Assembly (NCBI GenBank): GCA_005778405.1
Contig: SXOA01000150.1
Span: 1 to 64,000 of the forward strand
DNA length: 64,000 bases
Source: Planctomycetaceae bacterium
GTDB lineage: Bacteria > Planctomycetota > Planctomycetia > Pirellulales > Pirellulaceae
Reading direction: 5' to 3'
Shown here: in pieces, positions 1 through 12,212 of the stretch
How the letters are laid out: each line of letters begins with the position of its first letter
Position numbering within the stretch: the first letter of the stretch is position 1
Translations under genes and position numbers: made by a program
The notes under the pieces: model-generated
Seen by the model: only the letters and a program-made list of their open reading frames with translations
Told to the model about the DNA's origin: nothing
Database searches by the model: none

Positions 1-53
1 AGAGCGTCGGCCTCCGAAGCCGAAGGTTACAGGTTCGAGTCCTGTCGGGCATA
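1..53 (+). tRNA. 3' fragment of a tRNA cut by the window edge; anticodon loop CTCCGAA suggests Arg(CCG)
   Basis: The anticodon stem-loop cggcc-tccgaag-ccg, the T-arm acagGTTCGAGTcctgt and the acceptor 3' strand are all visible. The 5' half lies outside the window. Confidence 0.45.
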
Positions 54-146: not shown

Positions 147-1928
147 TTAATACAGCACAATGGCCCGCCCCGGCCCGCCGTGGCAGTCTCTGATTTTGAG
201 AGGGGCGAAGACAAAGTACCCACCTTCTGGAACCTTGTCGACATTGTGCAGGAACTCGACGCCGACCATTTCTTTGCTGCCAAGCGCCCAGTAGGTCATC
301 AGTGCCTGCTGGGGATCGACGCCTCCCAGATCGGGTGCGTCCGTGGCGATGCAGCGAATTCCTTTCTCCTTCAGGTAGACGACCGTTTCCGCCCCCACGG
401 CGGGCCAGCCTTCGCTTTTTCCCGCCAGCGGCGCGGTCCAAACGCCCCCGTCATTGGGCTGCGGCTGGAAATGATTGTCGAGGTGACCCGTGTGGAAGAG
501 CACGATGTCTCCGGCTCTTAGCGCACCATGCTCCTTTTCAAATGCTTCAACGTGGTTGGGCTTGATAACCGGAGATGCGGGCCAGCTCTTCGCGGGTATG
601 CTGCCGACGAGGGACCGCACGTCAATAACCCGTACCGGGCCGCTGGTCCAAGCCAGCGGAACTTTCTCGGTCGTTATCGAACTCGTGCCGCGGGGACCGA
701 ATTTCTTCTCGTACTCTTCCAGCCAGCCCCGCACCTCGGGAGAGTAGGCAATTTTTGCTCCCTCCGGCGGCAGCGCAAAGGAAGGGGGGACAAGGTGCGT
801 CCCCGCCATGGAATCCATCAGATGCGTATGATGCCAGAGGTCCAAGTATTCGGAATAGAGAAAGTCGATCTTGAGGTAAACCTGGCGATGCTGCCCCGCG
901 CCGATTCCCGGTGAAGTGACGGGCAAGTTCGGAGCCAGGGTCGGCGAGAGATCGACCGCTCGTTTGTTTTTGGCCGATTCGATCAGCCGCTTGGGCACGT
1001 CTCCCCCGACGATTGAGAATGCGCGGCACTCGCTATAGGGTCCCCCTTGGTGTTTGGGACCAAGCATGCAATAGAACGCCCCCGTCGGCGGCAGCGCTCC
1101 CAGATTCGTTGCTCCTTCGGTCCAGATCATGCCATGTTTGAGTCCCGCATAGTGTGTAGGTTCGGCCAGATCCGGCAGCGGCCCCATGCTGGCACTGTCG
1201 GTCCCCAGAGTCATCACGCCGCGCGTGGCAAGGTACTCCATGCACTCTGGATTGGGGTCGGGAAAACCGGGAGCTTTGCGATTCAAGGCATCGGCCACGA
1301 AGCGGCTCCCCTCCGGCAAGGGGAGGTAATACTTGTCCGAAAATCCACTGCGAAACAGCACCACGTCCCCAAATCGCAGCGCACGATGTTGCTCTTCAAA
1401 CCGCTGGACATGCTTGGGGGTGACCAGCGGGCTGACTCCTTTGGGTGCCTGATCGAGCAAGTCGCGGACATCGACGACGCACGCTTCTCCGCCGAACTGC
1501 CACGCCTCAATCTTGTCGGTATAGGCCAAACCCAATGGCCCAGACTTCTCGCGCTTGAGATCGGGGCGCGCGACGGAATGCGGCGGCACATCGAGCTGCG
1601 TTCCGGTGTTGCCGTCAATCAGCAGCACATCAATGTTGTAGGGGGAGTCCGGGCCGATCACCCGCTGACGGGTAATCTGAAAACGGGGAAACGGAAAGGA
1701 AGGCCACGTGCAGGGATATTCTGGAGCGACCAGCAGTGAGTGGTCGACAAACTGAGGCGAGTCACGTTTGGAACCAGGAGCCTGAGCGCCGCTTCGATTC
1801 ACCAACAATACTGCAAAAAGCAATGCGCCATGGAAGGATCGCCAGGGCATCCAATTGCAAGTTCGGTTCGTCATAGGATCGGTTTTCTGGCAAGATTCAC
1901 GGTTGAAAACAAGCGGGAGCACCGGCAA
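147..1928 (-). CDS. secreted protein with two tandem cyclase-family (kynurenine formamidase-like) domains; the likely start is the internal Met near 1850, giving a signal peptide
   Basis: 593-aa ORF. Two repeats carry cyclase-like GTHLD/GTQLDVPPH motifs. A hydrophobic signal-like segment (MPWRSFHGALLFAVLL) follows an internal Met. Confidence 0.55.
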   Translation of the reverse strand: MPVLPLVFNRESCQKTDPMTNRTCNWMPWRSFHGALLFAVLLVNRSGAQAPGSKRDSPQFVDHSLLVAPEYPCTWPSFPFPRFQITRQRVIGPDSPYNIDVLLIDGNTGTQLDVPPHSVARPDLKREKSGPLGLAYTDKIEAWQFGGEACVVDVRDLLDQAPKGVSPLVTPKHVQRFEEQHRALRFGDVVLFRSGFSDKYYLPLPEGSRFVADALNRKAPGFPDPNPECMEYLATRGVMTLGTDSASMGPLPDLAEPTHYAGLKHGMIWTEGATNLGALPPTGAFYCMLGPKHQGGPYSECRAFSIVGGDVPKRLIESAKNKRAVDLSPTLAPNLPVTSPGIGAGQHRQVYLKIDFLYSEYLDLWHHTHLMDSMAGTHLVPPSFALPPEGAKIAYSPEVRGWLEEYEKKFGPRGTSSITTEKVPLAWTSGPVRVIDVRSLVGSIPAKSWPASPVIKPNHVEAFEKEHGALRAGDIVLFHTGHLDNHFQPQPNDGGVWTAPLAGKSEGWPAVGAETVVYLKEKGIRCIATDAPDLGGVDPQQALMTYWALGSKEMVGVEFLHNVDKVPEGGYFVFAPLKIRDCHGGPGRAIVLY

Positions 1929-2000
1929 GTCACTGAGGGACCGCCGTGCAAACTCCCCATGAATAGCATCAAAGAGTTATTGGCCGTAAAGGCTTAGGTG

Positions 2001-3041
2001 CTATTTGACCCGCACCAACTTCATAATGCGCCCCGATACGTTCCAATCCTGCACATACAGATTGCCGTCCTTATCCCAGTAGGATCCGTGAGTGCCGCTG
2101 AAGACCCCCTCAATCCACTGCTCCTGTGGGACGCCAAAGTTCACTCTTTTCGCCGGGTCGGCATTGTGGCCTAGAACGGCGATGATTGTGTTGCTCTTGT
2201 CGAGAATGACGACTCGTCCGTGCAAATCCGGCACCGAGACATAGTCTCCTTGGACCGCGGCGGAGGTTGGCATTCCCAGGCCGGTCACCACCTCCTCAAT
2301 GAAGTTACCCTCGAGGTCATAGTGCAATAGCCGACCCTTGGGCGTGTGGTTGCGGTCGCAAATGAGCAGGCGAGGTGGTTCGTACCGAGTATCGAGTGTC
2401 ATGCCATGGGCGGTGTTGAATTGCTTGAGGTCGTTCCCCTTGGAACCAAAGTGCTTCAAGTATTTGCCGGCCTTATCAAACTTAATAATGTGGTTGCTGG
2501 CATAGCCGTCGGACAGAAAGATGTCGCCATTGGGCGCGATAGTGATCGCCGTGGGGTTGAACTGCTTGAGTTTGAGTCCGGATTCCTCGGGAAAGGGCAA
2601 CTTCAAGACGATCTCGCCACTATGGGCGTTGAATTTGATCCCTTCAGCATTGGCGTTGCGGGCACCGTAAATGAACTCCGCATCACCCTCTGCGCGGATC
2701 TCCATATCATGGATGTTGGAGTACTTGTCTCCCAGATATTCCTTGATCACCTTTCCATCGGGAGAGAAAACGACGACTCCCTTGTTGGCGCTGGTGTAAA
2801 TGTTTCCGGCCTTATCGATCACGACCGCGCCGTGTGTCGGTCCCAGGGCGGAAGTTCCATCCGGGCGCAGTCCCCAGCCGGGCACCGTTTCAAAGGTCAT
2901 GATCCCGCAGCCCATCCTTACCGGCTTGGCATCCTTTTGAGCCAGAGCGGGAAGGGTCAGGCCGAGCGACAACACGAAAGCGAGGCAAGCGGAACTGGTT
3001 TTCACGATCGGGACTCCAGAGTGAATCTTCATATTTGACAA
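2001..3041 (-). CDS. NHL-repeat / six-bladed beta-propeller secreted protein
   Basis: 346-aa ORF with an N-terminal signal peptide. It has repeated motifs of the form 'G..F..P.G.A.D..GN.YV.D', typical of NHL repeats. Confidence 0.5.
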   Translation of the reverse strand: MSNMKIHSGVPIVKTSSACLAFVLSLGLTLPALAQKDAKPVRMGCGIMTFETVPGWGLRPDGTSALGPTHGAVVIDKAGNIYTSANKGVVVFSPDGKVIKEYLGDKYSNIHDMEIRAEGDAEFIYGARNANAEGIKFNAHSGEIVLKLPFPEESGLKLKQFNPTAITIAPNGDIFLSDGYASNHIIKFDKAGKYLKHFGSKGNDLKQFNTAHGMTLDTRYEPPRLLICDRNHTPKGRLLHYDLEGNFIEEVVTGLGMPTSAAVQGDYVSVPDLHGRVVILDKSNTIIAVLGHNADPAKRVNFGVPQEQWIEGVFSGTHGSYWDKDGNLYVQDWNVSGRIMKLVRVK

Positions 3042-3458
3042 AATGCTGGGGTGAGTGGGAATTCGGGGCAGCTTCGAATTCGTTTAAACGGTGGCCCATT
3101 ATCCGGTCGCTAGCGACGAACTACAACCAGGGCAGCGGGTTCACCCTGTCGGCCATCCAGGCCGTCTTGCGAATTGGAAAAATTCCGCAACGGCGCGAAT
3201 AAACAGCGAATTGGGGCATCTTCCAATGGGAACTGGTTTTTTGCGCAACCAGCGAACCTTTCTGGCCCTCAGCCGTCTACATCCTTGAACCTGTCACAAC
3301 AGCACACCCCAATCGCGAAGGACCCGAGAATTCAAATGACCGCCTGGAATTCGAATTACTGCCTGCACAATCGCGAAGGCATCGCCGCCATGGGTACGGC
3401 GAATTGCTCCGCCTATCCGCTGCGCTGGTGACACGGCTCTAATCCTCAAGGGATGCAA

Positions 3459-3488
3459 AGCCCGGTGTCACATACGCCGGGCTTTTTT
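3459..3488 (+). terminator. intrinsic terminator-like hairpin (gcccgg...ccgggc) followed by a T6 run, immediately upstream of the tRNA array
   Basis: GC stem plus a TTTTTT run seen in the sequence. It ends an AT-richer region (3040-3500). Confidence 0.4.
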
Positions 3489-3505
3489 GTGGACTGAAAT
3501 AACGC

Positions 3506-3578
3506 GGCTCGTTCGTTTAGTGGCCTAGGATCCTGCCCTTTCAAGGCGGAGAGATGGGTTCGATTCCCATACGAGCTA
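3506..3578 (+). tRNA. tRNA-Glu (anticodon TTC)
   Basis: Cloverleaf fold by eye: acceptor ggctcgt/acgagct, anticodon loop CTTTCAA, T-arm atggGTTCGATTcccat. Confidence 0.65.
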
Positions 3579-3581
3579 CTT

Positions 3582-3653
3582 GGTAGTCGAGGGCTGGTCG
3601 CCCATCTTCGGCTGATAACCGGGGCGCGCTGAGTTCGATCCTCAGGGCTACCA
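3582..3653 (+). tRNA. tRNA-Ile (anticodon GAT) with an unusually short D-loop
   Basis: Acceptor ggtagtc/ggctacc, anticodon loop CTGATAA, T-arm ctgaGTTCGATCctcag. The D-arm gggc-tggtc-gccc is atypical. Confidence 0.45.
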
Positions 3654-3670
3654 CTTGAAAATTGGAAATC

Positions 3671-3743
3671 GGGATCAAGGTGTTAGCGGCAGCATGCCCG
3701 GCTCTTAACCGGGAAGGTGAGGGTTCGAGCCCCTCGGGTCCCA
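3671..3743 (+). tRNA. tRNA-Lys (anticodon CTT)
   Basis: Anticodon arm cccgg-CTCTTAA-ccggg and T-arm gaggGTTCGAGCccctc. The acceptor has one mismatch at its base. Confidence 0.5.
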
Positions 3744-3777
3744 CTCGCTGTTTGACAATCTGGTTGTGGAATGACGA

Positions 3778-3848
3778 GCGCCCATGATGTAGCGGCAGCC
3801 TGCTGCCTTGCCATGGCGGAAGTGCGGGTTCGACTCCCGCTGGGCGCT
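3778..3848 (+). tRNA. tRNA-Gly (anticodon GCC); D-arm appears truncated
   Basis: Acceptor gcgccca/tgggcgc, anticodon loop TTGCCAT, T-arm gcggGTTCGACTcccgc. Confidence 0.5.
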
Positions 3849-3885
3849 CTGAATTCGTAGCCCGCACACTCCGTGTGTGGGAAAT

Positions 3886-3959
3886 CGGCGTGTGGGAGAA
3901 ATGGGAAGTCCACGTGCTTTGGGAGCACGAAGATGCTGGTTCGAACCCAGCCGCGCCGA
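3886..3959 (+). tRNA. tRNA-Pro (anticodon TGG)
   Basis: Acceptor cggcgtg/cgcgccg, anticodon arm cgtgc-TTTGGGA-gcacg, T-arm gctgGTTCGAACccagc. It resembles the canonical bacterial Pro(UGG) sequence. Confidence 0.7.
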
Positions 3960-3964
3960 CCTTT

Positions 3965-4038
3965 TGTGGTGCCTCCGTGCTGGTACGGTGGAGCGGCTGT
4001 TAACCGCTTCTACGCAGGTTCGATTCCTGCCGCCACAG
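3965..4038 (+). tRNA. tRNA-Asn (anticodon GTT)
   Basis: U1-A72 start as in E. coli tRNA-Asn. Anticodon arm agcgg-CTGTTAA-ccgct, T-arm gcagGTTCGATTcctgc. Confidence 0.6.
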
Positions 4039-4041
4039 CTT

Positions 4042-4127
4042 GGAAGTCAACCGGCTGGATGAGGAGCCTGTCTCGAAAACAGGTGGCGGCACTTCGCCGC
4101 TTGCGAGTTCGAGTCTCGCGGCTTCCG
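4042..4127 (+). tRNA. tRNA-Ser (anticodon CGA) with a long variable arm
   Basis: Anticodon arm cctgt-CTCGAAA-acagg, long variable stem-loop ggcggcacttcgccgc, T-arm gcgaGTTCGAGTctcgc. 86 nt long. Confidence 0.7.
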
Positions 4128-4145
4128 CTTGATCGAAAAACAAAT

Positions 4146-4218
4146 GGTCCCGTGGCCAAGCGGCTAAGGCAGCACTCCTACAAAGTGACGAGCGGTGGTT
4201 CGACTCCATCCGGGACTA
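4146..4218 (+). tRNA. tRNA with anticodon TAC (Val-like), atypical: C at the normally invariant U33 position and a 27-43 mismatch
   Basis: Acceptor ggtcccg/cgggact, D-arm gcc-aagcggctaa-ggc, anticodon loop CCTACAA, T-arm ggtgGTTCGACTccatc. Confidence 0.4.
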
Positions 4219-4257
4219 CTGAACCAATAAACCAAAACCCTATCTATGAAAACAACT

Positions 4258-4332
4258 GTCCTCGTGGAGCAGCCCGGAGTGCTCGCCGCCCTGTCACGGC
4301 GGAGGCCGTCGGTTCAAATCCGATCGGGGACG
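4258..4332 (+). tRNA. tRNA-Asp (anticodon GTC)
   Basis: D-arm gagc...gctc, anticodon arm ccgcc-CTGTCAC-ggcgg, T-arm gtcgGTTCAAATccgat, acceptor gtcctcg/cggggac. Confidence 0.7.
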
Positions 4333-4343
4333 CTGAGACATTT

Positions 4344-4425
4344 GCGTCGGTTGGGCATTGGCAAGCCTCAGTGGCCGTAACCCACCCGCCTTCGGGCTCT
4401 GCAGGTTCAACTCCTGTCCGGCGCA
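4344..4425 (+). tRNA. tRNA-Tyr (anticodon GTA) with a long variable arm; the anticodon loop CCGTAAC has C at the U33 position
   Basis: Acceptor gcgtcgg/ccggcgc, variable stem cccg-cctt-cggg, T-arm gcagGTTCAACTcctgt. Confidence 0.5.
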
Positions 4426-4443
4426 CTTTGATGATTGCGATAA

Positions 4444-4526
4444 GGCCAAGTGATGAAACGGGAGACATGCGACGCTCAGAACGTCGTGCCATTCATGGCG
4501 TGGGAGTTCAACTCTCCCCTTGGCTA
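4444..4526 (+). tRNA. tRNA-Leu (anticodon CAG) with a long variable arm
   Basis: Acceptor ggccaag/cttggct, anticodon arm cgacg-CTCAGAA-cgtcg, variable hairpin ccat-tc-atgg, T-arm gggaGTTCAACTctccc. Confidence 0.7.
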
Positions 4527-4533
4527 CTGAAAT

Positions 4534-4602
4534 TGCGGGTGGGCCAGCGCCCACTCGAGCCTCATAAGCTCGATGAGCCGGGTGCGACCCCCGGACCCGC
4601 TA
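4534..4602 (+). tRNA. tRNA-like with anticodon CAT (Met/fMet/Ile2-like), atypical: T-loop reads TGCGACC (G at the Psi55 position), short D-arm, position 1-72 unpaired
   Basis: Anticodon arm cgagc-CTCATAA-gctcg is clean. The T-arm ccggg-tgcgacc-cccgg and the acceptor pair only over 6 bp. Confidence 0.35.
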
Positions 4603-4606
4603 CTCT

Positions 4607-4677
4607 GGTCTGTAGGTGCTGCGGCCGCACACTGCTTTGGTAGGGCAGGAGCCCGGGTTCGACTCCCGGACGGACCT
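4607..4677 (+). tRNA. tRNA-Thr (anticodon GGT)
   Basis: Acceptor ggtctgt/acggacc, D-arm gtgc-tgcggcc-gcac, anticodon loop TTGGTAG, T-arm ccggGTTCGACTcccgg. Confidence 0.6.
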
Positions 4678-4691
4678 CTCGATATGAATTC

Positions 4692-4763
4692 GGGCCTGCA
4701 TGCCGCTGGAGGCGACTGATCCTTGCAAGATCGGTGTGATGGGTTCAACTCCCATCAGGTCCA
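4692..4763 (+). tRNA. tRNA-Ala (anticodon TGC), with the G3:U70 identity pair
   Basis: Acceptor gggcctg/caggtcc contains the G3-U70 wobble. Anticodon arm tgatc-CTTGCAA-gatcg, T-arm atggGTTCAACTcccat. Confidence 0.7.
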
Positions 4764-4778
4764 CTGAACGACGTACAC

Positions 4779-4850
4779 AGCTCAATGGTGAAACGGAAAT
4801 CATTCCTCGCTTCGAACGAGGAGGTCCGGGTTCGACTCCTGGTTGAGCTG
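4779..4850 (+). tRNA. tRNA-Arg (anticodon TCG)
   Basis: Acceptor agctcaa/ttgagct, anticodon arm cctcg-CTTCGAA-cgagg, T-arm ccggGTTCGACTcctgg. Confidence 0.55.
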
Positions 4851-4861
4851 CTGATTTACAT

Positions 4862-4939
4862 GGTTTCCGTAGTGTAGCGGTCGCTGCACGCCTGGCTGTG
4901 AACCAGGAGGCATGGGTTCGACTCCCATCGGATACCCCA
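4862..4939 (+). tRNA. tRNA-His (anticodon GTG) with encoded G-1, C73 discriminator and an encoded CCA
   Basis: G-1 precedes the acceptor gtttccg. Anticodon arm cctgg-CTGTGAA-ccagg, T-arm atggGTTCGACTcccat, 3' end ...cggatac-C-CCA. Confidence 0.65.
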
Positions 4940-4940
4940 T

Positions 4941-5033
4941 TGGCGAAAGTCGAAATCCGAAATCCAAAATCCGAAACTCGGAATCGAAATGCCCTTTTTC
5001 GGATTTCGTGCTTCGAATTTCGGGTTTCTATTT
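4941..5033. repeat. spacer made of short direct repeats (gaaatcc x3) followed by their inverted complement (ggatttcg... cgaatttcggg); predicted extended hairpin inside the tRNA array
   Basis: Seen directly in the sequence between tRNA-His and tRNA-Trp. There is no convincing cloverleaf. Confidence 0.4.
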
Positions 5034-5103
5034 ACGAATGTGCTCCTGGGAGAGCAGCTAGCCTCCAAAACTGGTCTACGGGGTTCGAATCCTCGCGTTC
5101 GTG
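5034..5103 (+). tRNA. tRNA-Trp (anticodon CCA)
   Basis: A1 start as in E. coli tRNA-Trp. D-arm gctc-ctggga-gagc, anticodon loop CTCCAAA, T-arm cgggGTTCGAATcctcg, acceptor acgaatg/cgttcgt. Confidence 0.5.
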
Positions 5104-5137
5104 CTCAAAGTAGTCCGCTCACTCCGTGGGCGAACAT

Positions 5138-5211
5138 GCCGACGTGGCGCGATTGAGAAAGGCGCCGGCTTCGTAAGCCGGTTCATGCTGGTGCGAATCC
5201 AGTCGTCGGCT
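5138..5211 (+). tRNA. tRNA-Thr (anticodon CGT); T-loop reads TGCGAAT (G at position 55)
   Basis: Acceptor gccgacg/cgtcggc (exact), anticodon arm ccggc-TTCGTAA-gccgg, T-arm gctgg-tgcgaat-ccagt. Confidence 0.5.
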
Positions 5212-5224
5212 CTGTTTGTGGTTT

Positions 5225-5297
5225 GTCCTCGCAGTGTGCCGGATACGCACGCGACCCTGCGAAGGTCGAAGACCAGGTTCAATTCCTGGCGAGGATA
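5225..5297 (+). tRNA. tRNA-Arg with anticodon GCG (uncommon in bacteria, which usually carry ACG)
   Basis: Acceptor gtcctcg/cgaggat, anticodon arm cgacc-CTGCGAA-ggtcg, T-arm ccagGTTCAATTcctgg. Confidence 0.45.
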
Positions 5298-5460
5298 CTG
5301 CGCCAGCAGCACCAGGCTCAAAATCAACAAGCCAAATCCCCCCGCGAGCACCGCTTTCATCCCTACGGCAGCCACCCGGAAGCCAAAAATGAGCACTTTC
5401 ACACTGCTGTTCGCGCCAACGTTGTCAAACGCGACCGGCTGATTTGCGACGATGGGCCGA

Positions 5461-6924
5461 CTAGCCTCCGCAACCGCCGCAGCCCCCTCCACCGCCGCAC
5501 CCTCCGCCGCCTCCACCACAACCTCCTCCGCCCGTCGAACAGCCGCCGCCCCCATTCGCACGCGGCAGCATGGCATAGACCTCGGCCAGCGGGCCGTCTG
5601 CCAATATGCCGGCACCGAACAATCCGATCGTCATCGCCAGCGTAGCGGGAGACATCGCCGCCGTAGCGGACTCCGAGAGTTGTGTCGCGGAAGCATGCTT
5701 TGCCTGCAGCGACTCGAGCGATGCTTGACCGCTGGACGAAAGTCGCGACCGAGCGAGCAGATAGACGAGCGCAGCCACGGCCGTCAAAAGGCAAGCGACT
5801 ATCAGAAACTCAACCGGCCGGCCGCGCGATAGCCCGATCGCAATTTTCGGCAAGCCAAGGAGCAGCGGCGCAGCCATGATGAGGCTTGCCGCCACGCTGC
5901 GAGCCGAAGGAGCGCCCGCTTGCAGAAAGCCTCGCTCGATCAGGCTCTCGTTGATTTCCTGTGCGATTGGCATTCCCGCCTTGGTGAGCGGCTCAATACT
6001 TTCCGCGGGAACGGCCGCGGTCTCGAACAATGCCTGTTCCAGCCGCGGCGAGTTCTTTGGCAACGGTTTGCCTTGCCGAATCGTGCTCGTGCTCCAGGTA
6101 AAGAACCCCCAGCCCTTGTTTTCTGTGACAAGTTGCAGCGTTCCGGCTTGCACCATCGCCGCGAACGCGGCCTGCACGGCCCGCGCTGCACCAGCCGCCA
6201 GACAGGCTACTTCGTAGGGGTCGAGACTCGCGGGTTTCTCGCCAACGGCCCCTTCGTTGGTGGGATTGACCAGCCGAGTTATGAGCGCCAGGACAGCGGC
6301 AATGATGACGAGGAGAATGTACAAACCCAGAAATCGTGGCCCGGTCCAGTCGAGCGGGTTCCACATCCCAGCCCCAAGCGGCAGGCCAACAAGACCCAGC
6401 ACGAGGAGCGGCGAGGAACGGGAAAGCATGAGCGGCCAGCTCGGTCTGGGGATGATCCAATACCGCCGGGTGTTCACACTCACGTGCTGGAGATCCTCGC
6501 CAAATCGTTGACCCGCGGGCGGCCAGATGTCGCCTGGCGGCAGTTGTCCGAAGAGCCGCTCATAACTCGCCAGCGTCTGGTTGTAGAGTTCGATGAATCT
6601 CGTTTGTTCCGCTTCGCCCCCTTTGGTTGGCCCATGATGCAGCGGCTGTTGAAGCACGTTTCGGCAAAGGTTTTCCCAGTACGAGCGGGTGTATGTCAGA
6701 TGCAGATGCCAGGCCTGATCGACTTGCTCGGAGGGAGTGACCACATGGCCCGCGGTGACGGCCAGGAAGAGAAACTTCCGGTACTCGGCAATCACTCGCT
6801 CGGAATAGGCCGCGCTCCAGCCGTTTTCGCGGGCCAGTCGCCGGGTAAACGTCAACTCCGTTGCGGGCTCATCGATTTGGAATGCGATCAACTTTGCCAA
6901 CAGAGTTTGTTGCGTAGCGTTCAT
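5461..6924 (-). CDS. membrane protein with an N-terminal GRDP-like (glycine-rich domain protein, DUF1399-type; ...VDQAWHLHL... motif) domain and a TIGR04222-like TM region, ending in a Gly/Cys-rich tail (GGGGCSTGGGGCGGGGGGCGGGGGCGGCGG)
   Basis: 487-aa ORF with multiple hydrophobic helices. The C-terminal tail is encoded by an imperfect GGC/GCC repeat at 5461-5550. Confidence 0.5.
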   Translation of the reverse strand: MNATQQTLLAKLIAFQIDEPATELTFTRRLARENGWSAAYSERVIAEYRKFLFLAVTAGHVVTPSEQVDQAWHLHLTYTRSYWENLCRNVLQQPLHHGPTKGGEAEQTRFIELYNQTLASYERLFGQLPPGDIWPPAGQRFGEDLQHVSVNTRRYWIIPRPSWPLMLSRSSPLLVLGLVGLPLGAGMWNPLDWTGPRFLGLYILLVIIAAVLALITRLVNPTNEGAVGEKPASLDPYEVACLAAGAARAVQAAFAAMVQAGTLQLVTENKGWGFFTWSTSTIRQGKPLPKNSPRLEQALFETAAVPAESIEPLTKAGMPIAQEINESLIERGFLQAGAPSARSVAASLIMAAPLLLGLPKIAIGLSRGRPVEFLIVACLLTAVAALVYLLARSRLSSSGQASLESLQAKHASATQLSESATAAMSPATLAMTIGLFGAGILADGPLAEVYAMLPRANGGGGCSTGGGGCGGGGGGCGGGGGCGGCGG

Positions 6925-7070
6925 GAGAGGCCTCCGAGGATTTGGCGAAAACCGACTCTCAACTCCACCGATACCAGCGACAACGAAGAATCCGGCGCGC
7001 GCGGAAAATTGTTTCCTGCCCCGGCCGCGGCGGGTACAATGAGGCCCAACATCGCACTTAGATTGGACTT

Positions 7071-7724
7071 ATGACGATTCACGAAAATTTGGCGCGAATC
7101 AAATTGCCTGCGGAGCCGGCGCTGGTCGCGGCGGCAGTGGGGGGTGATCGCGTTGCCCTGGAGCGTCTGCTCCTCGCCCACTACGACCCCTTGGCGCGCC
7201 GGATCGGGGAAAAGCTGCCACCTCGGTTGCGGGCGACGCTGGCCGCCGAAGACATCTTGCAACTCACGTTCCTTCAGGCCTTCCGCGACATCGGGCAATT
7301 CGAGCTGCGGGCGGATGCGACCTTTGGCAATTGGCTGGCGCGGATTGCCGAAAACCGCTTGCACGACGCCATCAAGGCGCACGACTGCACGAAGCACGGC
7401 GGAGATTTGCAAAGAGTCCAGGACGGCGCGGGAAGCGACGGTAGCGTTCTGTCGCTCTGGGACTGGATTGCCGCTGCCGACACTTCACCCGGCAGTATTG
7501 TGGCGCGGGAAGAAGCGCTGCAAGCTTTGCAGGTCGCTTTGGCTTCGCTGCCCAGCGACCAGGGCATGGCGATTCGACTGCAAGTGCTCGAGGGAAAATC
7601 GCTGGCGGAAACTGCCACGGCATTGGGCCGGACTTCCGACGCAATTCGCGGGCTCGTGCATCGCGGCAAAGAGCAACTGCTGGCCGCCATGGGGCGAGCG
7701 TCCAAATGGCTGAAGTCCCAATGA
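7071..7724 (+). CDS. ECF-type RNA polymerase sigma-70 family factor
   Basis: 217 aa with sigma-70 region 2 and region 4 (helix-turn-helix) features. Its stop overlaps the start of the downstream kinase. Confidence 0.7.
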   Translation: MTIHENLARIKLPAEPALVAAAVGGDRVALERLLLAHYDPLARRIGEKLPPRLRATLAAEDILQLTFLQAFRDIGQFELRADATFGNWLARIAENRLHDAIKAHDCTKHGGDLQRVQDGAGSDGSVLSLWDWIAAADTSPGSIVAREEALQALQVALASLPSDQGMAIRLQVLEGKSLAETATALGRTSDAIRGLVHRGKEQLLAAMGRASKWLKSQ

Positions 7725-7731
7725 AACTGCC

Positions 7732-10203
7732 ATGAACGACACACTGCGGAACCTTACCGAAGTCGACCGCGACGCGCAGATATTTCGCGTCGTGGATGAG
7801 GCGCTACAGCGGCGAGCGGGAGGGGAGGAGATTACCGACGACGATCTTTGCCGGGAACATCCCAACCTGCTGCCGGAACTGGCCGCGGAGCTGCGCAAGG
7901 TGCGAGTCATCGCGCGAGCGCGTGAGCAATCCAGACAGCCGGCTGCGGACCGACGCGACCCCGCGAGCGATGAAACGGCTGCTTTCTTACCGATGCGGCC
8001 GCAAGTGCCCCGCCTGTCACGCTCGCTGGATATTCGTTGCCCTCTGTGCCGCGAGCCGCTGGAGATCGCCGCTGATCAGCCGCTGGAGGACATTCCCTGC
8101 CTGTCATGCCACGGCCGGTTCAGCCTGGCCGGTGACGATCCGGGCCTGAAGGATCAACAGCCCGTCACTCGGATCGCCCATTTCGAGTTGCTACAACGGC
8201 TGGGAATGGGGAGCTTCGGCACCGTGTGGAAAGCCCACGATGTGAAACTCGACCGCACGATCGCCCTGAAGATTCCCCGCCGCGGGCATTTGAGCTCCAG
8301 TCAAGTGGAGAAGTTCTTGCATGAAGCCCGCGTCGCCGCGAAGCTGCGGCATCCACACATCGTCAGCGTCCACGAGATTGGCCGCGACGACGACAGCATC
8401 TACATTGTCAGCGACCTCGTGGAAGGGGTCTCGCTGGAAAAATTCAAGGACGCGAAACGGCTGACGCAGCGAGAAGCGGCCCAGTTGCTCGTCACCGTGT
8501 GTGACGCGCTGCACTTCGCCCATCAGGCGGGAATCGTGCATCGTGACCTCAAGCCGGGCAACATCCTGATCGACGCCCAAGGAGTGCCGCACATCACCGA
8601 CTTTGGCCTGGCCAAGCGCGGGAACGAGGAAGTCGAGATCACGATGCAGGGAGAGATCCTGGGGACGCCGGCGTACATGTCGCCGGAACAGGCCCGCGGC
8701 GAGTCGCACCTGGCTGACCGCCGCACCGACGTTTATGCGATGGGAGTCATGTTCTTCGAGCTCCTTACCGATTGTCTTCCCTTCCGCGGCAACGTGCCGG
8801 CCCTCACGCAGCACGCGATCCACACCGAGCCGCCCAGTCCGCGCCGGCTCAATGCGACCATTTCGCGCGATCTGGAAACCATCTGCCTGAAATGCCTGGA
8901 GAAGGATCCCGTGCGCCGTTACGAATCGGCCGATGACCTGGCTGCCGAACTGCGCCGTTTTCTGGCCGGGGACGAAATCCGAGCGCGGCCGATTTCGCGG
9001 AGCGAACGCCTCTGGCGCTGGTGCCGGAAGAACCCACGGATTCCCACGCTCTCCGCGGCGCTGCTCGGCGTCGTGCTGATTGCCTATGCCGGCGCCTGGG
9101 TCTGGTTTGAGGCCCACATCGACCGCACGCGGCAGAGGCTCCAGGAACAGGCCCACGAGAACCTTCAGTTCACAGGTGGGGCGATTACCACAGCCGCCGG
9201 GCACGACTTCGACAAGTATTTTCAGCAGGTTAAGGACGCGGCTCGCGATCCCGTTCTGGCCAAACAACTGCGGGAGATGCAAGTGGTTCAGCAGAAATAT
9301 GCGCCGCTCAACGCGGTCGTCAAAAACGGGCCGCTTCAGGCGGAATTGCTCGACGAAAAGCTCCGGCAGCCGCTCAAGAAGTGGACCGAGAGCTTGCCGC
9401 GGGGGCAGTCAGTGTTCTCCTGGTTTGTCATGCAACCGGACGGGTTGCAGGTCGCGCGATATCCAGAGGTGTCGGGAGGCGAGAATACCATCGGCGAGAA
9501 CTATTCGTGGCGAGCCTATTTTCATGGCGGCCCGGAAGACAAACCGCTCGATTGGCGGGCCATTCCTGGACAGCATCTGACCGGGACCCAATTGTCGCCA
9601 CCCTTCTTTACTCATCACACTTTTGAATGGGTCTTGGTCGTCTCGACCCCAATCCCCGATCCGCAAGCCTCGGACGCCCCGGCACTCGGGGTCCTGGGAC
9701 TCATGCTGAAGCTGGGGTCGTTCGTGGAACTGCCCGGCAACGCGCCTCATGTCTCGCGGACCGAGGATACCGCCGGCGCTGAAAGCCGCTTTGCCGTGCT
9801 GATCGATTCGCGTCCCGCTCACCAGGGGAAAATCCTCCAGCATCCTCGGTACAGCGATCTAGAGAGTGATCAAGCTGCTCGTAGAAAGCTGCTCGACAGC
9901 TCGCTTGAGCCGGCGTTGCGAGTGCAGGGAGACTGGACCTGGCAGGACGACTACCTCGATCCCCTGGAGGAGCAACATTCCGGCGCGGACCCGCAGCAAT
10001 GGCTGGCCAGCCGTTTGCCAGTGAAAATCAGCGGGACCGACAGCGGCCTGGATGTCATCGTTCAGGAAAGCTACGACCAGACGATCAAGCAACCCCTGGC
10101 CGAGCTACGCCGCGGCCTGATTCTCCTGAGCTTGATCACGTTTGGACTCGCCGCGGTCGTGATCGTACCGCTGTGGGGGATCATTCTGCGATTAGTGCGA
10201 TGA
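7732..10203 (+). CDS. serine/threonine protein kinase with a C-terminal TM anchor and a large extracytoplasmic domain (ECF-sigma-associated)
   Basis: Hanks kinase motifs HRDLKPGNILID, DFGLAK and GTPAYMSPE. Hydrophobic segments near residue ~430 and at the C-terminus. Confidence 0.8.
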   Translation: MNDTLRNLTEVDRDAQIFRVVDEALQRRAGGEEITDDDLCREHPNLLPELAAELRKVRVIARAREQSRQPAADRRDPASDETAAFLPMRPQVPRLSRSLDIRCPLCREPLEIAADQPLEDIPCLSCHGRFSLAGDDPGLKDQQPVTRIAHFELLQRLGMGSFGTVWKAHDVKLDRTIALKIPRRGHLSSSQVEKFLHEARVAAKLRHPHIVSVHEIGRDDDSIYIVSDLVEGVSLEKFKDAKRLTQREAAQLLVTVCDALHFAHQAGIVHRDLKPGNILIDAQGVPHITDFGLAKRGNEEVEITMQGEILGTPAYMSPEQARGESHLADRRTDVYAMGVMFFELLTDCLPFRGNVPALTQHAIHTEPPSPRRLNATISRDLETICLKCLEKDPVRRYESADDLAAELRRFLAGDEIRARPISRSERLWRWCRKNPRIPTLSAALLGVVLIAYAGAWVWFEAHIDRTRQRLQEQAHENLQFTGGAITTAAGHDFDKYFQQVKDAARDPVLAKQLREMQVVQQKYAPLNAVVKNGPLQAELLDEKLRQPLKKWTESLPRGQSVFSWFVMQPDGLQVARYPEVSGGENTIGENYSWRAYFHGGPEDKPLDWRAIPGQHLTGTQLSPPFFTHHTFEWVLVVSTPIPDPQASDAPALGVLGLMLKLGSFVELPGNAPHVSRTEDTAGAESRFAVLIDSRPAHQGKILQHPRYSDLESDQAARRKLLDSSLEPALRVQGDWTWQDDYLDPLEEQHSGADPQQWLASRLPVKISGTDSGLDVIVQESYDQTIKQPLAELRRGLILLSLITFGLAAVVIVPLWGIILRLVR

Positions 10204-10453
10204 TGGGCCATGGCTTGAGCGAATGGTTCAGTGAATCGCGCTATCCGACCACGAAAGAATTTCAGCGAACCATTCTTCGCTGTTTGCATCTACCCCTTGC
10301 AGAGCCAAAGATGCTCGCGAAGGAGCCGGCGAGTCCAAGCTCCGCACGCTTGCGCACATGACATGGGGATAGTCCCCGCAAGAGCCTTCTCCAAGGCCCA
10401 GTGTCACGAGTGAAACCGGGATTTTTTTGTGCGCTCAAGACGACAGAGTGTAT

Positions 10454-10525
10454 GACGCTGGAGCCAGACGGCACGGCCGCTGCCTGCAAAGCAGCTCCAA
10501 GTGGGTTCGACTCCCACCGGCGTCT
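10454..10525 (+). tRNA. tRNA-Cys (anticodon GCA)
   Basis: Acceptor gacgctg/cggcgtc, anticodon arm gctgc-CTGCAAA-gcagc, T-arm gtggGTTCGACTcccac. Confidence 0.7.
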
Positions 10526-10630
10526 CTTGCAAGCAAGCGATGTTTGTCGCCAGGCCAGCGGCGCACCGAGCCTCGATTTCGAGTCTGCTCGGCGTGTTCC
10601 GAACATGGGGTCTAACGAAGGCGGCAGACA

Positions 10631-10703
10631 GCGAGGTTAGCTCAGTGGAAAGAGCACCAGGCTACTAACCTGGATGTCGCGGGTTCGACTCCCGTACCAT
10701 CAC
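10631..10703 (+). pseudogene. tRNA-like element / probable pseudo-tRNA: good D, anticodon and T arms, but anticodon ACT and an acceptor stem that cannot close
   Basis: D-arm gctc-agtggaaa-gagc, anticodon arm ccagg-CTACTAA-cctgg, T-arm gcggGTTCGACTcccgt. The 5' acceptor gcgaggt is not complementary to the 3' accatca. Confidence 0.4.
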
Positions 10704-11105
10704 CGCAGGCGTGAAAAACCTGCTCGACCGGGCGCGCAAGCGTCTACCAAGAGGCCCGCGGGAGGCGGGCATTCGCTGGATCAGCTGTCGTCCATTGTGA
10801 CTCGTTCACACGGACGGCAGCAGCACTAGAAACATGCCTTGAAAGGCGCACATCCCGCTTACCACCGCTGCCACTAATTGATTTGTCGGCGCTCACGAGC
10901 GACGCGATTGGTTTCGGCCACTCGCTAACTCGCCAGCCAGGCATTTCAAAGTGACGGCGAAGTCTGCTCAAAGCGCACTTCCGCATTTTTCCGTGTGATT
11001 CGTGAACGTCCCGCCCCCCAACGGCGTCTCTTCGTCTTCAACACAGTTGTTTCATCGCGCGCCAACCGCGAGCCCAGTTGGCAAGATGAAAGGAGCCCAG
11101 CTCCA

Positions 11106-12212
11106 ATGTTCCTGTTCAAGCATTTCAAGATCCGCACCCACGAAATGGGCCTCTACTTCCGCGACGGCGAGTTCAAGGGACTGCTCCGCGCCGGCAAGCA
11201 CTGGCTCTTCGACCCGCTCGGCAAGGTCCGTGTTGAAGTCGTATCGCAGCGCGCGCCGTGGCTCGTGCACGAGCAGCTCGACGAAATCGTCAAGTCGGGC
11301 GCTCTGTCGGGCCGCGCCGTCGTCCTGGACCTCAAGGACTACGAGCGGGGCCTGGTCTGGGTCGACGGCCGCTTCAGCCACATTTTGCCGAAGGGTCTGT
11401 TCGCTTACTGGACTGGCCGCCGCGACGTACAGATCGAGATCATCGATGCGCGAATCGTGCGGTTCGAGCACAAGGACGCCAAGGTGATCATGCGGTCGGC
11501 ACAGGCACAGCTTGCGCTCGACATTTGCAACGTCGCCCGACACTGCGTCGGCGCGCTGTTCGTCGATGGCGAGTTCATCGAAGTTCTCGCTCCAGGCCAG
11601 TACGCGTTCTGGAAGGGACTTGTGGACGCCCGCGTCGTCGAGCTCGACCTGCGAGAAACGACCGCGGACGTGAGCGGCCAGGAGCTGATGACTGCCGACA
11701 AGGTGACGCTGCGGATGAACGCCCTGGCGACTTACCGCATCGTCGATGCCAAGAAGGCGGTCTGCGCGACCGACGACGTTCGCCAGGCGCTCTACCGCGA
11801 AACGCAGATGGCTCTGCGGGCCGTGGTCGGCGCGCACGAGCTCGACGCCTTCCTGGCCAACAAGGATGCGGTGGCCCTGGAGATCGAGCAGGCCGTTCGC
11901 CGCCGGGCCGGCGAACTGGGTCTGGAGATCGTGTCGGTCGGCATCCGTGACGTGATCCTGCCGGGCGAGATGAAGGACCTGATGAACAAGGTCACGGAAG
12001 CCAAGAAGGCAGCCGAGGCCAACCTCATCGTCCGCCGCGAGGAAACGGCTGCCATGCGCAGCCAAGCCAACACGGCCAAGTTGCTGGCCGACAACCCGAC
12101 CCTGATGCGCCTCCGAGAGCTGGAGGTTCTGGAAAAGGTCGTCGCCAACGGCAAGCTGAAGGTAGTCCTCGGCGAAAAGGGCCTGGCCGAACGGGTCGTG
12201 AACCTGCTCTAG
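11106..12212 (+). CDS. SPFH/band-7 (slipin/stomatin-like) domain protein
   Basis: RBS aaaggag upstream of ATG 11106. The SPFH-like core is followed by a coiled-coil C-terminus (..KKAAEANLIVRREETAAMRSQANTAKLLADN..). Confidence 0.65.
   Translation: MFLFKHFKIRTHEMGLYFRDGEFKGLLRAGKHWLFDPLGKVRVEVVSQRAPWLVHEQLDEIVKSGALSGRAVVLDLKDYERGLVWVDGRFSHILPKGLFAYWTGRRDVQIEIIDARIVRFEHKDAKVIMRSAQAQLALDICNVARHCVGALFVDGEFIEVLAPGQYAFWKGLVDARVVELDLRETTADVSGQELMTADKVTLRMNALATYRIVDAKKAVCATDDVRQALYRETQMALRAVVGAHELDAFLANKDAVALEIEQAVRRRAGELGLEIVSVGIRDVILPGEMKDLMNKVTEAKKAAEANLIVRREETAAMRSQANTAKLLADNPTLMRLRELEVLEKVVANGKLKVVLGEKGLAERVVNLL

Follow-up and report, generated by a model that had tools for sequence, protein, structure and literature searches.

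The stretch of DNA analysed here (the window) comprises the first 64,000 nucleotides (nt) of contig SXOA01000150.1 from a Planctomycetaceae bacterium (assembly GCA_005778405.1). Near its 5' end it contains a dense array of transfer RNA (tRNA) genes, 19 of them on the + strand at 3506-5298, which is preceded by a short leader open reading frame (ORF) and an intrinsic terminator and followed, beyond a block of three other genes, by a tRNA-Cys gene, a conserved tRNA-like element and an SPFH/Band_7 gene. By gene order and sequence identity this array is a reduced member, with about half the genes, of a family found across the Planctomycetota, and we propose, with a probability of roughly 0.7, that it is a supernumerary 'reserve' tRNA operon that would be switched on when translation falters.

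The array and its severed tail

The genes of the array were called with ARAGORN, at default and relaxed thresholds, and with Rfam (Table 1). By default, ARAGORN reports 17 tRNAs on the + strand of the block, plus tRNA-Cys downstream, while tRNA-Ser(CGA) is recovered at the relaxed threshold. The default run misses tRNA-His(GTG), which is nevertheless the top Rfam tRNA match of the window and encodes both G-1 (opposite C73) and the terminal CCA; most array tRNAs have no encoded CCA. The density is 10.6 tRNA genes per kb over 3506-5298 and 2.85 per kb over 3506-10526, the latter interval holding 20 tRNA genes in 7.0 kb once tRNA-Cys is counted. The array is non-periodic, that is, repeats between its members amount to generic T-arm similarity and the best identity within the array is at most 71%.

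The initial annotation had described 19 head-to-tail tRNA genes behind an intrinsic terminator, and all of this is real: the gene order and anticodons that it gave agree exactly with the ARAGORN and Rfam calls, its tally of 17 amino acids lacking Phe, Gln and Cys is right for the block, and RNAfold returns a 12-bp terminator hairpin followed by six T residues. Its measurements need some adjustment. The start had been placed at 3459, but the first tRNA begins at 3506, 3459-3505 being occupied by the terminator and a short spacer; spacers said to be 3-35 nt are close to the 2-38 nt measured, with the sole exception of the gap between His and Trp (4937-5033), which is ~95 nt long. Lastly, tRNA-Cys does lie at 10454, but it is not the independent gene that its description as sitting separately implied (see below).

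Many of these tRNAs are unusual enough to escape covariance models. Even with permissive filters, only 11 of the 19 pass the Rfam gathering score (29 bits), with scores of 42-59 bits, and the other eight are below threshold or unreported: there is no Rfam report for Ile, Ala or Arg(GCG), and for Trp, Asn, Tyr, Met and Ser the score is too low or the match is to a sister model. Fewer genes would thus be listed by a strict tRNA caller. Protein gene callers, for their part, put ORFs of 236 and 143 amino acids over the array (3873-4643 on the + strand and 5076-5615 on the - strand). The same false ORFs occur (as genes 6848-7558 and 7991-8422) in L001, a 145-kb metagenome contig containing the window sequence (ENA ERZ27257034 k141_1495704; L numbers designate the individual loci and contigs compared), and such proteins sit in public databases.

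Table 1. Features at the array locus, in window coordinates
Feature	Position	Strand	Remarks
tRNA-Arg(CCG), 3' part, stand-alone	1-53	+	Rfam 41.7 bits, model positions 20-71
Promoter-like motif GCGAACC-N15-CGTCTAC, ECF-sigma type	~3254-3280	+	~55 nt 5' of leader ATG
Leader ORF, MTAWNSNYCLHNREGIAAMGTANCSAYPLRW-stop	3336-3431	+	31 codons; gene call on L001; conserved family
Stop-codon region GGTGACACGGC, putative antiterminator strand	3427-3437	+	TGA at 3429-3431; complementary to terminator 5' arm
Intrinsic terminator	3457-3488 (hairpin 3457-3485)	+	12-bp GC-rich hairpin + T6 (RNAfold); ends 17 nt before tRNA-Glu
tRNA-Glu(TTC)	3506-3579	+	opens first block (16 genes, 3506-4939)
tRNA-Ile(GAT)	3582-3654	+	
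tRNA-Lys(CTT)	3671-3744	+	
tRNA-Gly(GCC)	3778-3849	+	
tRNA-Pro(TGG)	3886-3961	+	
tRNA-Asn(GTT)	3965-4039	+	
tRNA-Ser(CGA)	4042-4129	+	ARAGORN, relaxed
tRNA-Val(TAC)	4146-4219	+	
tRNA-Asp(GTC)	4258-4333	+	
tRNA-Tyr(GTA)	4344-4426	+	
tRNA-Leu(CAG)	4444-4527	+	
tRNA-Met(CAT)	4534-4603	+	
tRNA-Thr(GGT)	4607-4678	+	
tRNA-Ala(TGC)	4692-4764	+	
tRNA-Arg(TCG)	4779-4851	+	
tRNA-His(GTG)	4862/3-4936 (to 4939)	+	Rfam 58.6 bits; last of first block
Imperfect 32-nt inverted repeat, GAAATCC-like units	4945-5028	+	repeat search; fold -28.2 kcal/mol, z = -1.96
tRNA-Trp(CCA)	5034-5104	+	ARAGORN; opens second block (3 genes, 5034-5298)
tRNA-Thr(CGT)	5138-5212	+	ARAGORN
tRNA-Arg(GCG)	5225-5298	+	ARAGORN
Block interrupting the array	5302-10199	mixed	5.1 kb, three genes
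TIGR04222-family membrane protein	5461-6924	-	Pfam annotation of block
ECF sigma factor	7071-7724	+	Pfam annotation of block
Ser/Thr kinase	7732-10203	+	Pfam annotation of block
Second, degenerate leader copy	10200-10432	+	ORF 10200-10361 (MMGHGL...SSARLRT-stop, 53 codons), just 5' of tRNA-Cys
tRNA-Cys(GCA)	10454-10526	+	ARAGORN; usual last tRNA of the array family
Conserved ~150-nt tRNA-like element	10594-10741 (core 10633-10704)	+	between tRNA-Cys and SPFH gene
SPFH/Band_7 gene	11106-12212	+	Pfam PF01145; conserved downstream neighbour

What separates the 19-gene block from tRNA-Cys is a set of three genes, which interrupts the array: in two close relatives the tRNAs on either side nearly adjoin, Arg(GCG) and Cys lying 12 nt apart in L108, and Thr(CGT) and Cys ~60 nt apart in L060. 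This 5.1-kb block probably arrived by insertion, and no target-site duplication was seen at its junctions. The same TIGR04222/ECF/kinase module is found in other Pirellulaceae (five relatives) with no array nearby. A synteny test anchored on the TIGR04222 gene, in which these five relatives had no array beside that gene, was uninformative because the module is itself what interrupts the array.

Beyond the block, the locus resumes where it left off. A second, degenerate copy of the leader, with a weakened terminator-like hairpin and seven T residues at ~10395-10428, lies before tRNA-Cys; it can be aligned to 3300-3510 and is matched at 10349-10427 by a hidden Markov model (HMM) of the leader/terminator module (26 bits, E = 5e-6). 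The tRNA-Cys is 85-90% identical to the terminal Cys of two long related arrays (L011 and L012), and Cys comes after Arg(GCG) in most loci. Judged by this conserved order, tRNA-Cys and the tRNA-like element that follows it are the array's own tail, severed by the three-gene block. The SPFH gene completes the picture: its product is 72% identical to that of the gene after the L012 array, and at least 17 loci have such a gene after Cys or after the tRNA-like element. Apart from the 19 genes, the tRNA-related elements of the window number three, namely tRNA-Cys, the tRNA-like core and a truncated tRNA-Arg(CCG) at its very edge, which is whole in L001 (2895-2968) and also lies 5' of the array in L108, with 100% identity over 53 nt.

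A collinear family in the Planctomycetota

Gene callers place spurious ORFs over tRNA arrays, and the false ORF at 3873-4643 was therefore used as a protein query, which matched false ORFs over related arrays. Two of these, with 39 (L011) and 30 (L012) tRNA-type elements, are collinear with the window, and every window tRNA has a positional homologue in them, with 75-97% identity: 97% and 90% for Gly, 92% and 89% for Lys, 90% and 85% for Cys, 89% and 86% for Arg(GCG), 88% for Glu and Asp, and 87% for Leu and Trp. The second block is no exception, since Trp, Thr and Arg(GCG) are 87-91% identical to Trp, Thr(TGT) and Arg(GCG) of L011. There are two anticodon switches, Arg(TCG) and Thr(CGT) of the window corresponding to Arg(TCT) and Thr(TGT).

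How far the family extends was determined by scanning one genome per GTDB species with a tRNA-Trp motif of 26 specified bases. At least 119 genome stretches match, nearly all from Planctomycetota, the carriers spanning Pirellulales, Planctomycetales, Gemmatales, Isosphaerales and Brocadiales (Kuenenia), along with a few other phyla and two viral contigs, and including the cultured Adhaeretor mobilis, Lacipirellula limnantheis and Aeoliella straminimaris. According to ARAGORN, the recurring order is Phe-Glu-Pro-Ile-Lys-Ile(TAT)-Lys-Thr-Gly-Pro-Asn-Ser-Gly-Gln-Gln-Ser-Val-Leu-Leu-Asp, continued by Leu-Tyr-Glu-Leu-Met-Leu-Val-Thr-Ala-Ala-Ser-Arg-Ser-His-Trp-Thr-Arg-Arg-Arg-Cys, from which individual arrays (3-39 genes) depart by many deletions and some duplications. 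Long arrays have 30-39 genes; the window, L108 (from the Pirellulaceae metagenome-assembled genome, MAG, TH_ant_mag_59) and L060 have ~20 each, with differing losses. Although the last two are 82-97% identical to the window at the nucleotide level, their content differs, L060, for example, having no Arg(GCG). In the partial literature covered, collinearity of tRNA arrays across the phylum is not mentioned.

The 3' end of family arrays has a layout of its own, in which His is followed by an HNH endonuclease gene, a strong hairpin, Trp, optionally Thr, the Arg genes ending in Arg(GCG), and Cys; ~110-150 nt further on comes the tRNA-like element and, after another 270-580 nt, the SPFH/Band_7 gene. 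The HNH gene, on the same strand as the tRNAs, is present between His and Trp in at least 46 loci, whereas the His-Trp gap of the window keeps only the hairpin. In many lineages this pre-Trp hairpin consists of inverted runs of a lineage-specific 6-8-nt tandem repeat (GAAATCC in the window, GAGTCGA, GGATGAA or GATTTTC elsewhere, with stabilities down to -78 kcal/mol), so that the structure is kept while the repeat unit changes; it also occurs in L016, L057, L061, L111, L097, L124, L109, L092, L078, L128, L063 and L088. It may be a terminator of the HNH gene, a processing site or an internal promoter region.

Other genes recur at the array tail. A Ro60 gene (TROVE-vWA) adjoins it in 13-14 loci (for instance L012, 13662-15317), and in L011 (13489-15073) its place is taken by a fragmented RtcB ligase gene and an RbfA-like ORF. 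This pattern points to a repeated association of family arrays with genes for RNA quality control or repair. In the window itself, tblastn found no homologue of HNH or Ro60, and RtcB is absent as well. Some genomes have two family arrays – L055 and L107 (Bythopirellula sp. OZ245849.1, 150 kb apart), L018 and L021, L019 and L045, L080 and L083 – and L125 has array tails (Thr-Trp ... Cys) that point towards each other with a Ro60 gene in between. Outside the phylum, the array-type Trp motif was seen in MAGs assigned to Terriglobia (L022 and L036), Actinomycetota (L073) and Alcaligenaceae (L131); L073 has the planctomycete gene order, which may reflect mis-binning or transfer, and the Terriglobia arrays are ordered differently. 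The two viral contigs (IMG/VR, 169 and 69 kb) carry tRNA arrays with the same unusual Trp body and the same adjacency of His, gap and Trp; their order is otherwise different and they have no leader.

Low model scores might suggest tRNAs on their way out, but covariation tells another story. For each of the 20 window tRNAs, 15-98 distinct family homologues were aligned and the alignments folded. All 20 fold to a cloverleaf, with canonical pairs in 95-99.8% of cells compared with 38-55% (72% for Ala) in controls with a shifted 3' partner, and each tRNA family shows 5-17 pairs with double compensatory changes. In the window copies, 424 of the 430 consensus pairs are intact and six are non-canonical. 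Identity elements are also in place: G3:U70 in Ala, G-1:C73 in His, C1:G72 and A73 in Pro, A1:U72 and G73 in Trp, U73 in Gly, G73 in Asp, and long variable arms in Ser, Leu and Tyr. Because compensatory substitutions keep the cloverleaf, the array RNAs are under purifying selection for tRNA shape and are not eroding pseudogenes.

A putative control region and the tRNA-like element

What precedes the arrays is conserved as well. The leader/terminator module is found at the 5' end in 37 loci, 5-50 nt before the first tRNA, whichever tRNA leads, and its HMM matches the window at 3412-3488 (48 bits, E = 8e-13). The leader ORF, whose frame is kept relative to L108 despite a 3-nt indel, belongs to a family of 30-39 codons with a conserved N-terminus (M[MF]xLR[PS]S[FL]I) and C-terminus (PLRL-stop), is not enriched in any single amino acid and matches no curated family in NCBIfam. 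In most loci a Shine-Dalgarno-like GGAG, GAGG or AAGGA lies 6-12 nt before its ATG, and that of the window is weak (GAGAA). The terminator hairpin is present in 22 of 22 leaders, 25-40 nt after the leader stop codon.

In addition, the region around the leader stop codon is complementary to the 5' arm of the terminator. In the window this duplex has a predicted energy of -15.3 kcal/mol (RNAduplex, p = 0.003 against shuffles), and the same complementarity is significant in 18 of 22 leaders (median z of -3.4, with duplexes of -13 to -23 kcal/mol), the family consensus of the stop region, TTGTGACACCTTGGCC, being complementary to the terminator arm GCCCGGTGTCAC. By eye, and with no count made, the stop region seems to co-vary with the terminator arm in at least L067 and L068. 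Together, the leader, the stop-region complementarity and the terminator suggest the layout of a candidate ribosome-sensing attenuator.

Promoters recognised by extracytoplasmic function (ECF) sigma factors have a -35 element with GAAC ('AAC') and a -10 element with CGT(C), ~16 nt apart. The motif upstream of the leader fits this form and is a predicted promoter, its function being inferred. GAACC-N13-18-CGTCT has a single match in the 64-kb window. In the family the motif takes the form G[CT]GAACC-N15/16-CGTCTA, ~55-80 nt before the leader ATG; the exact version lies at most 260 nt 5' of 14 of the 31 leaders, versus 19 other matches in 1.79 Mb, and most of the remaining leaders have near-variants. 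A scan of 3000-5600 for sigma-70 promoters returned no site. The presence of an ECF sigma gene inside an operon with an ECF-type promoter motif may be coincidence; autoregulation of this inserted gene was considered and dropped, the array motif being absent upstream of it.

At the other end of the array, the conserved tRNA-like element has a 5' motif, GTGTTCCGnACATGG, a core with a tRNA-Val-like body, which matches the Rfam tRNA model over positions 5-66 only (50.4 bits), and two downstream hairpins. The D, anticodon-stem and T arms of this core are near-invariant, whereas its acceptor stem has only three pairs and its 'anticodon' loop is hypervariable, being read by ARAGORN as Ser-ACT, His-ATG, Asp-ATC or Pro-AGG depending on the locus. 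RNAalifold supports only the tRNA-like arms and a 4-bp hairpin. A profile HMM scores 124 bits in the window and 57-122 bits in 30 other genome loci, and in at least 31 genome loci the element lies between the array tail and the SPFH gene. A pattern scan of metagenomes with the core, run to see whether Cys, the element and the SPFH gene also occur with no array, mostly caught ordinary tRNA-Val(GAC) genes; of the six full-length elements that it yielded, four are clearly located after an array tail, one (L223) is preceded by too little sequence to tell and one (L253) lacks an upstream Cys.

Two identities were considered for this element. The first, an attachment (att) site formed by the duplicated 3' end of tRNA-Arg(CCG), fails since the sequences are unrelated and there are no flanking direct repeats. 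The second is a Y RNA. Bacterial Y RNAs such as YrlA and Yrn1 likewise have a tRNA-like module with conserved D and T arms that does not decode (Chen et al., 2014, PMC4201824), the Ro60 gene found beside related array tails recalls their setting, and the upstream motif of the element contains ACGAAGG, reminiscent of the GNCGAA Ro60-binding motif. The order of its arms is that of a tRNA, as in Yrn1 and unlike YrlA. However, in contrast to Y RNAs, the element has no long Ro60-binding stem with covariation support, Rfam reports only a partial tRNA and the window has no Ro60 gene, so that this identity is unsupported. The tRNA array literature, as far as covered, mentions no terminal element of this kind.

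A proposed reserve operon, its rivals and its relatives

The operon that we propose would work as follows. Transcription would start at the ECF-type promoter. A ribosome promptly reaching the leader stop codon would mask the antiterminator strand, the terminator would form and the array would stay silent. If leader translation were slow or stalled, the stop region could instead pair with the 5' arm of the terminator, allowing read-through into the tRNA genes. RNase P and 3' processing would then free individual tRNAs, to which CCA would be added afterwards since most have none encoded, and the array would supply extra or replacement tRNAs under antibiotics, tRNA-cleaving toxins or phage attack. 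These parts do not deserve equal confidence. That the array is an accessory member of the Planctomycetota family is very probable; that the attenuator operates as just described has about an even chance; and a physiological role in backing up the tRNA supply when translation is stressed, tRNase toxins act or phages attack, which is suggested by analogy, is tentative. The fullest version of the proposal – a stress-inducible reserve operon throughout the phylum, with an ECF-type promoter, a leader stop codon inside the antiterminator and a non-decoding tRNA-like RNA as its last element before the SPFH gene, of which the window would have a reduced but intact copy with the leader duplicated before the severed tail – is possible, with odds that fall somewhat short of even.

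Several points weigh against this proposal: (i) promoter, leader translation and read-through are all read from the sequence, (ii) 0.74 matches to the promoter motif are expected by chance per 64 kb, so that it gains weight only by turning up at this position elsewhere in the family, (iii) the middle of the leader peptide is variable, and the conservation of its C-terminal LRL-stop may come from RNA pairing rather than from the peptide, (iv) the silent state needs tight coupling of transcription and translation because a ribosome-free leader predicts read-through, (v) the RNA-repair link rests on relatives, the window copy having no HNH, Ro60 or RtcB gene, (vi) the terminal Cys could be the only copy in the cell, as the published count for planctomycetes is a single tRNA-Cys gene in each genome (PMC4807772 Table S3), and (vii) a collinear, widespread family with a constant SPFH neighbour could be a partly old, vertically inherited and partly essential locus.

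Among rival explanations, the one that survives best, while still unlikely, is that of a decaying relic, a tRNA cluster acquired by horizontal transfer, now silent and undergoing erosion. The low covariance-model scores of many members fit this explanation, as do the location behind a terminator and the shrinkage from ~39 to ~21 elements with loss of the HNH gene and splitting by the 5.1-kb block, and it is the interpretation that Kim et al. (2016, PMC4807772) gave of a 'degenerate cluster of partially degraded tRNAs'. The covariation argues otherwise: just six non-canonical pairs in 430, intact identity elements and many compensatory double substitutions per family are not expected of neutral decay. 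Moreover, the leader, terminator and promoter motif are kept even in strongly reduced arrays, and a second leader copy is kept before the severed Cys.

A somewhat less probable rival is a housekeeping operon, constitutively expressed, from which the cell would chiefly draw these tRNAs, as with the large tRNA operons of Firmicutes. Strong structural conservation with compensatory changes and retained identity elements would fit, as would the presence of the family in all major planctomycete orders with the same gene order and SPFH gene (which resembles old vertical inheritance), the nearby RNase III and purB genes and a tRNA-Cys that may be single-copy. Yet content varies among close relatives, some genomes have two arrays, eight of the 19 tRNAs fall short of the Rfam threshold and a strong terminator stands 17 nt before the first tRNA. 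In addition, the window array cannot be the whole tRNA set of the cell because an initiator-like tRNA, Phe and Gln are absent and most amino acids are served by a single isoacceptor (Lys-TTT, Gly-TCC and any Leu other than CAG are missing); many codons are beyond its reach. Published work points the same way. Planctomycetes have supernumerary tRNA clusters, extra copies with low Cove scores (PMC4807772, supplementary file 15), with canonical tRNAs elsewhere (PMC4807772 S2 Text; PMC4758250; PMC8421152), including a conserved Trp-tuf-Thr-Gly-Tyr-Thr cluster with Trp beside tuf (PMC4807772), and two Lacipirellulaceae genera range from 46 to 77 tRNA genes per genome, congeners differing by ~30 (PMC13315336). 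The accessory reading of the initial annotation is supported by variable family content, divergent tRNAs, an incomplete set, the HNH and viral links and the literature.

The surroundings of the array are those of a chromosome. Flanking proteins have their best matches in Pirellulaceae MAGs, and the neighbours are ordinary genes encoding a cyclase-family protein, the ECF sigma factor and Ser/Thr kinase, the SPFH/Band_7 protein, a nucleoside phosphorylase, a 2-hydroxyacid dehydrogenase, RNase III and adenylosuccinate lyase (purB). At ~57%, the array differs little in GC content from its neighbourhood. Local synteny with relatives speaks for vertical inheritance over short evolutionary distances. 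The stretch between tRNA-Arg(CCG) and the leader is also a variable spot, since its content differs between close relatives: cytochrome bd oxidase genes (cydAB) in L108 (2945-5290), a cyclase-family gene and a hypothetical gene on the opposite strand in the window (147-3041). A phage genome, first suggested by the many tRNAs and 59% GC (as in an actinophage), was rejected, since megablast found no match in 50,697 phage records and the flanks are chromosomal.

Least probable of all is a currently mobile element or prophage carrying its own tRNAs to express foreign genes, for although HNH homologues occur in jumbo phages and plasmid-borne arrays, two viral contigs share the tRNA-Trp body, a few matches lie in non-planctomycete MAGs and the canonical tRNA-Arg(CCG) 3.4 kb upstream is a typical integration target, there is no integrase, transposase, phage structural gene or flanking direct repeat within 12 kb of the array, phage and plasmid collections (searched at nucleotide level, distant BLAST included) yield only single generic tRNA matches, the GC content is that of the surroundings, the locus and its right-hand neighbour are syntenic with relatives, and the viral arrays differ in order and have no leader. 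The earlier suggestion that the array could be mobile applies at most to its past, to which the HNH homologues and viral Trp body may testify; for the present, the flanks contain no integrase, transposase or flanking repeat.

How does a reserve operon of this kind compare with known systems? Arrays of tRNA genes in Planctomycetes were noted before (Tran et al., 2016, PMC4758250; Kim et al., 2016, PMC4807772; Santamaria-Gomez et al., 2021, PMC8421152), and the window array is almost certainly an instance of the 'degenerate tRNA gene clusters' that Kim et al. (PLoS One, S2 Text) described in Pirellulales, with up to 28 same-strand tRNA genes of low scores and variable size, presumed dispensable. 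It has the low scores (8 of 19 under 29 bits or unreported) and the planctomycete setting, with Pirellulaceae flanks. It differs in two respects. The published clusters were seen as fast-evolving, partially degraded and disrupted in synteny, whereas the family is collinear across the phylum and the window tRNAs keep their structure by compensatory change; and a leader ORF, terminator, promoter motif, embedded HNH gene, terminal tRNA-like element or SPFH neighbour are not mentioned by Kim et al. Their hallmark tRNA-Ile(UAU) is found in many family members and is absent from the window.

The array units of Tran et al. (2016), for which Planctomycetes are among the phyla listed, share high density, near-complete amino-acid coverage and, as regards the family, a nearby HNH gene, and may also have redundancy with the core set and patchy distribution in common with it. 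Of the two thresholds used there, at least 2 tRNA genes per kb is well exceeded, while at least 20 tRNA genes per 10-kb seed is reached only if tRNA-Cys is included, the contiguous block being one short. Such units, for example those of Acidithiobacillus integrative and conjugative elements (ICEs) or Mycobacterium plasmids and phages (PMC5966550), are often on ICEs, plasmids and phages. The window array, in contrast, is chromosomal, with no mobility genes in its flanks and with a phylum-specific order and leader.

The closest functional parallel is the L-array, or trn operon, on plasmid delta of Anabaena sp. PCC 7120 (Puerto-Galan & Vioque, 2012; PMC8421152; PMC10272220), which is not expressed as long as translation is unimpaired, can be switched on by translation inhibitors and helps cells to survive (PMC8421152), under the control of promoter direct repeats and the repressor TrcR (PMC8421152; PMC10272220). 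Both it and the family are long, non-periodic arrays on a single strand, with genes that in the window are spaced closely enough for co-transcription, and the Anabaena genes are supernumerary. The family HNH protein is 38-40% identical to the one encoded beside the trn operon (it is also similar to proteins of jumbo phages and actinobacterial plasmids), and planctomycete arrays in relatives adjoin RNA-repair genes such as RtcB, as in the L-array setting. The frequent association with HNH and RNA-processing genes is thus found in the family and is missing from the window. There are clear differences too: the Anabaena HNH gene is upstream of its array rather than between His and Trp, a profile search found no planctomycete leader or terminator in the Anabaena array, and the idea that the two are collinear was abandoned because gene order differs even though the HNH genes are homologous.

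Ribosome-mediated attenuators are best known from the leaders of the trp and his operons and from the antibiotic-sensing leaders of erm, cat and ABC-F resistance genes. With these the planctomycete control region shares a short leader ORF, a terminator before the regulated genes and a predicted alternative pairing with the 5' arm of that terminator, which the position of the ribosome would mask or expose. It departs from them in that its candidate targets are tRNA genes rather than genes for enzymes or resistance proteins, its leader is not enriched in one amino acid and its putative antiterminator overlaps the stop codon.

Extra tRNA arrays were thus already known in the phylum, and what is apparently undescribed is the conserved control region and architecture: the literature covered, which is partial and hence no proof of novelty, describes no leader peptide, attenuator or ECF-type promoter for tRNA arrays. 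In practice, up to 40% of these genes escape standard callers, which biases tRNA counts and conclusions on codon usage drawn from planctomycete genomes and MAGs. Since members of the family occur in cultured strains (Adhaeretor mobilis HG15A2, Lacipirellula limnantheis I41 and Aeoliella straminimaris), the proposal can be tested directly. If the leader has no such role, the array would be one more accessory tRNA array of a kind known in the phylum. Extra tRNA arrays are present in many bacteria and phages, and a function has been assigned only to that of Anabaena. If the attenuator is real, the planctomycete family would represent a second, mechanistically different way to silence surplus tRNA genes until they are needed and a rare case of tRNA genes under translation-coupled attenuation, in which a sensor of translational capacity would directly govern the supply of tRNAs.

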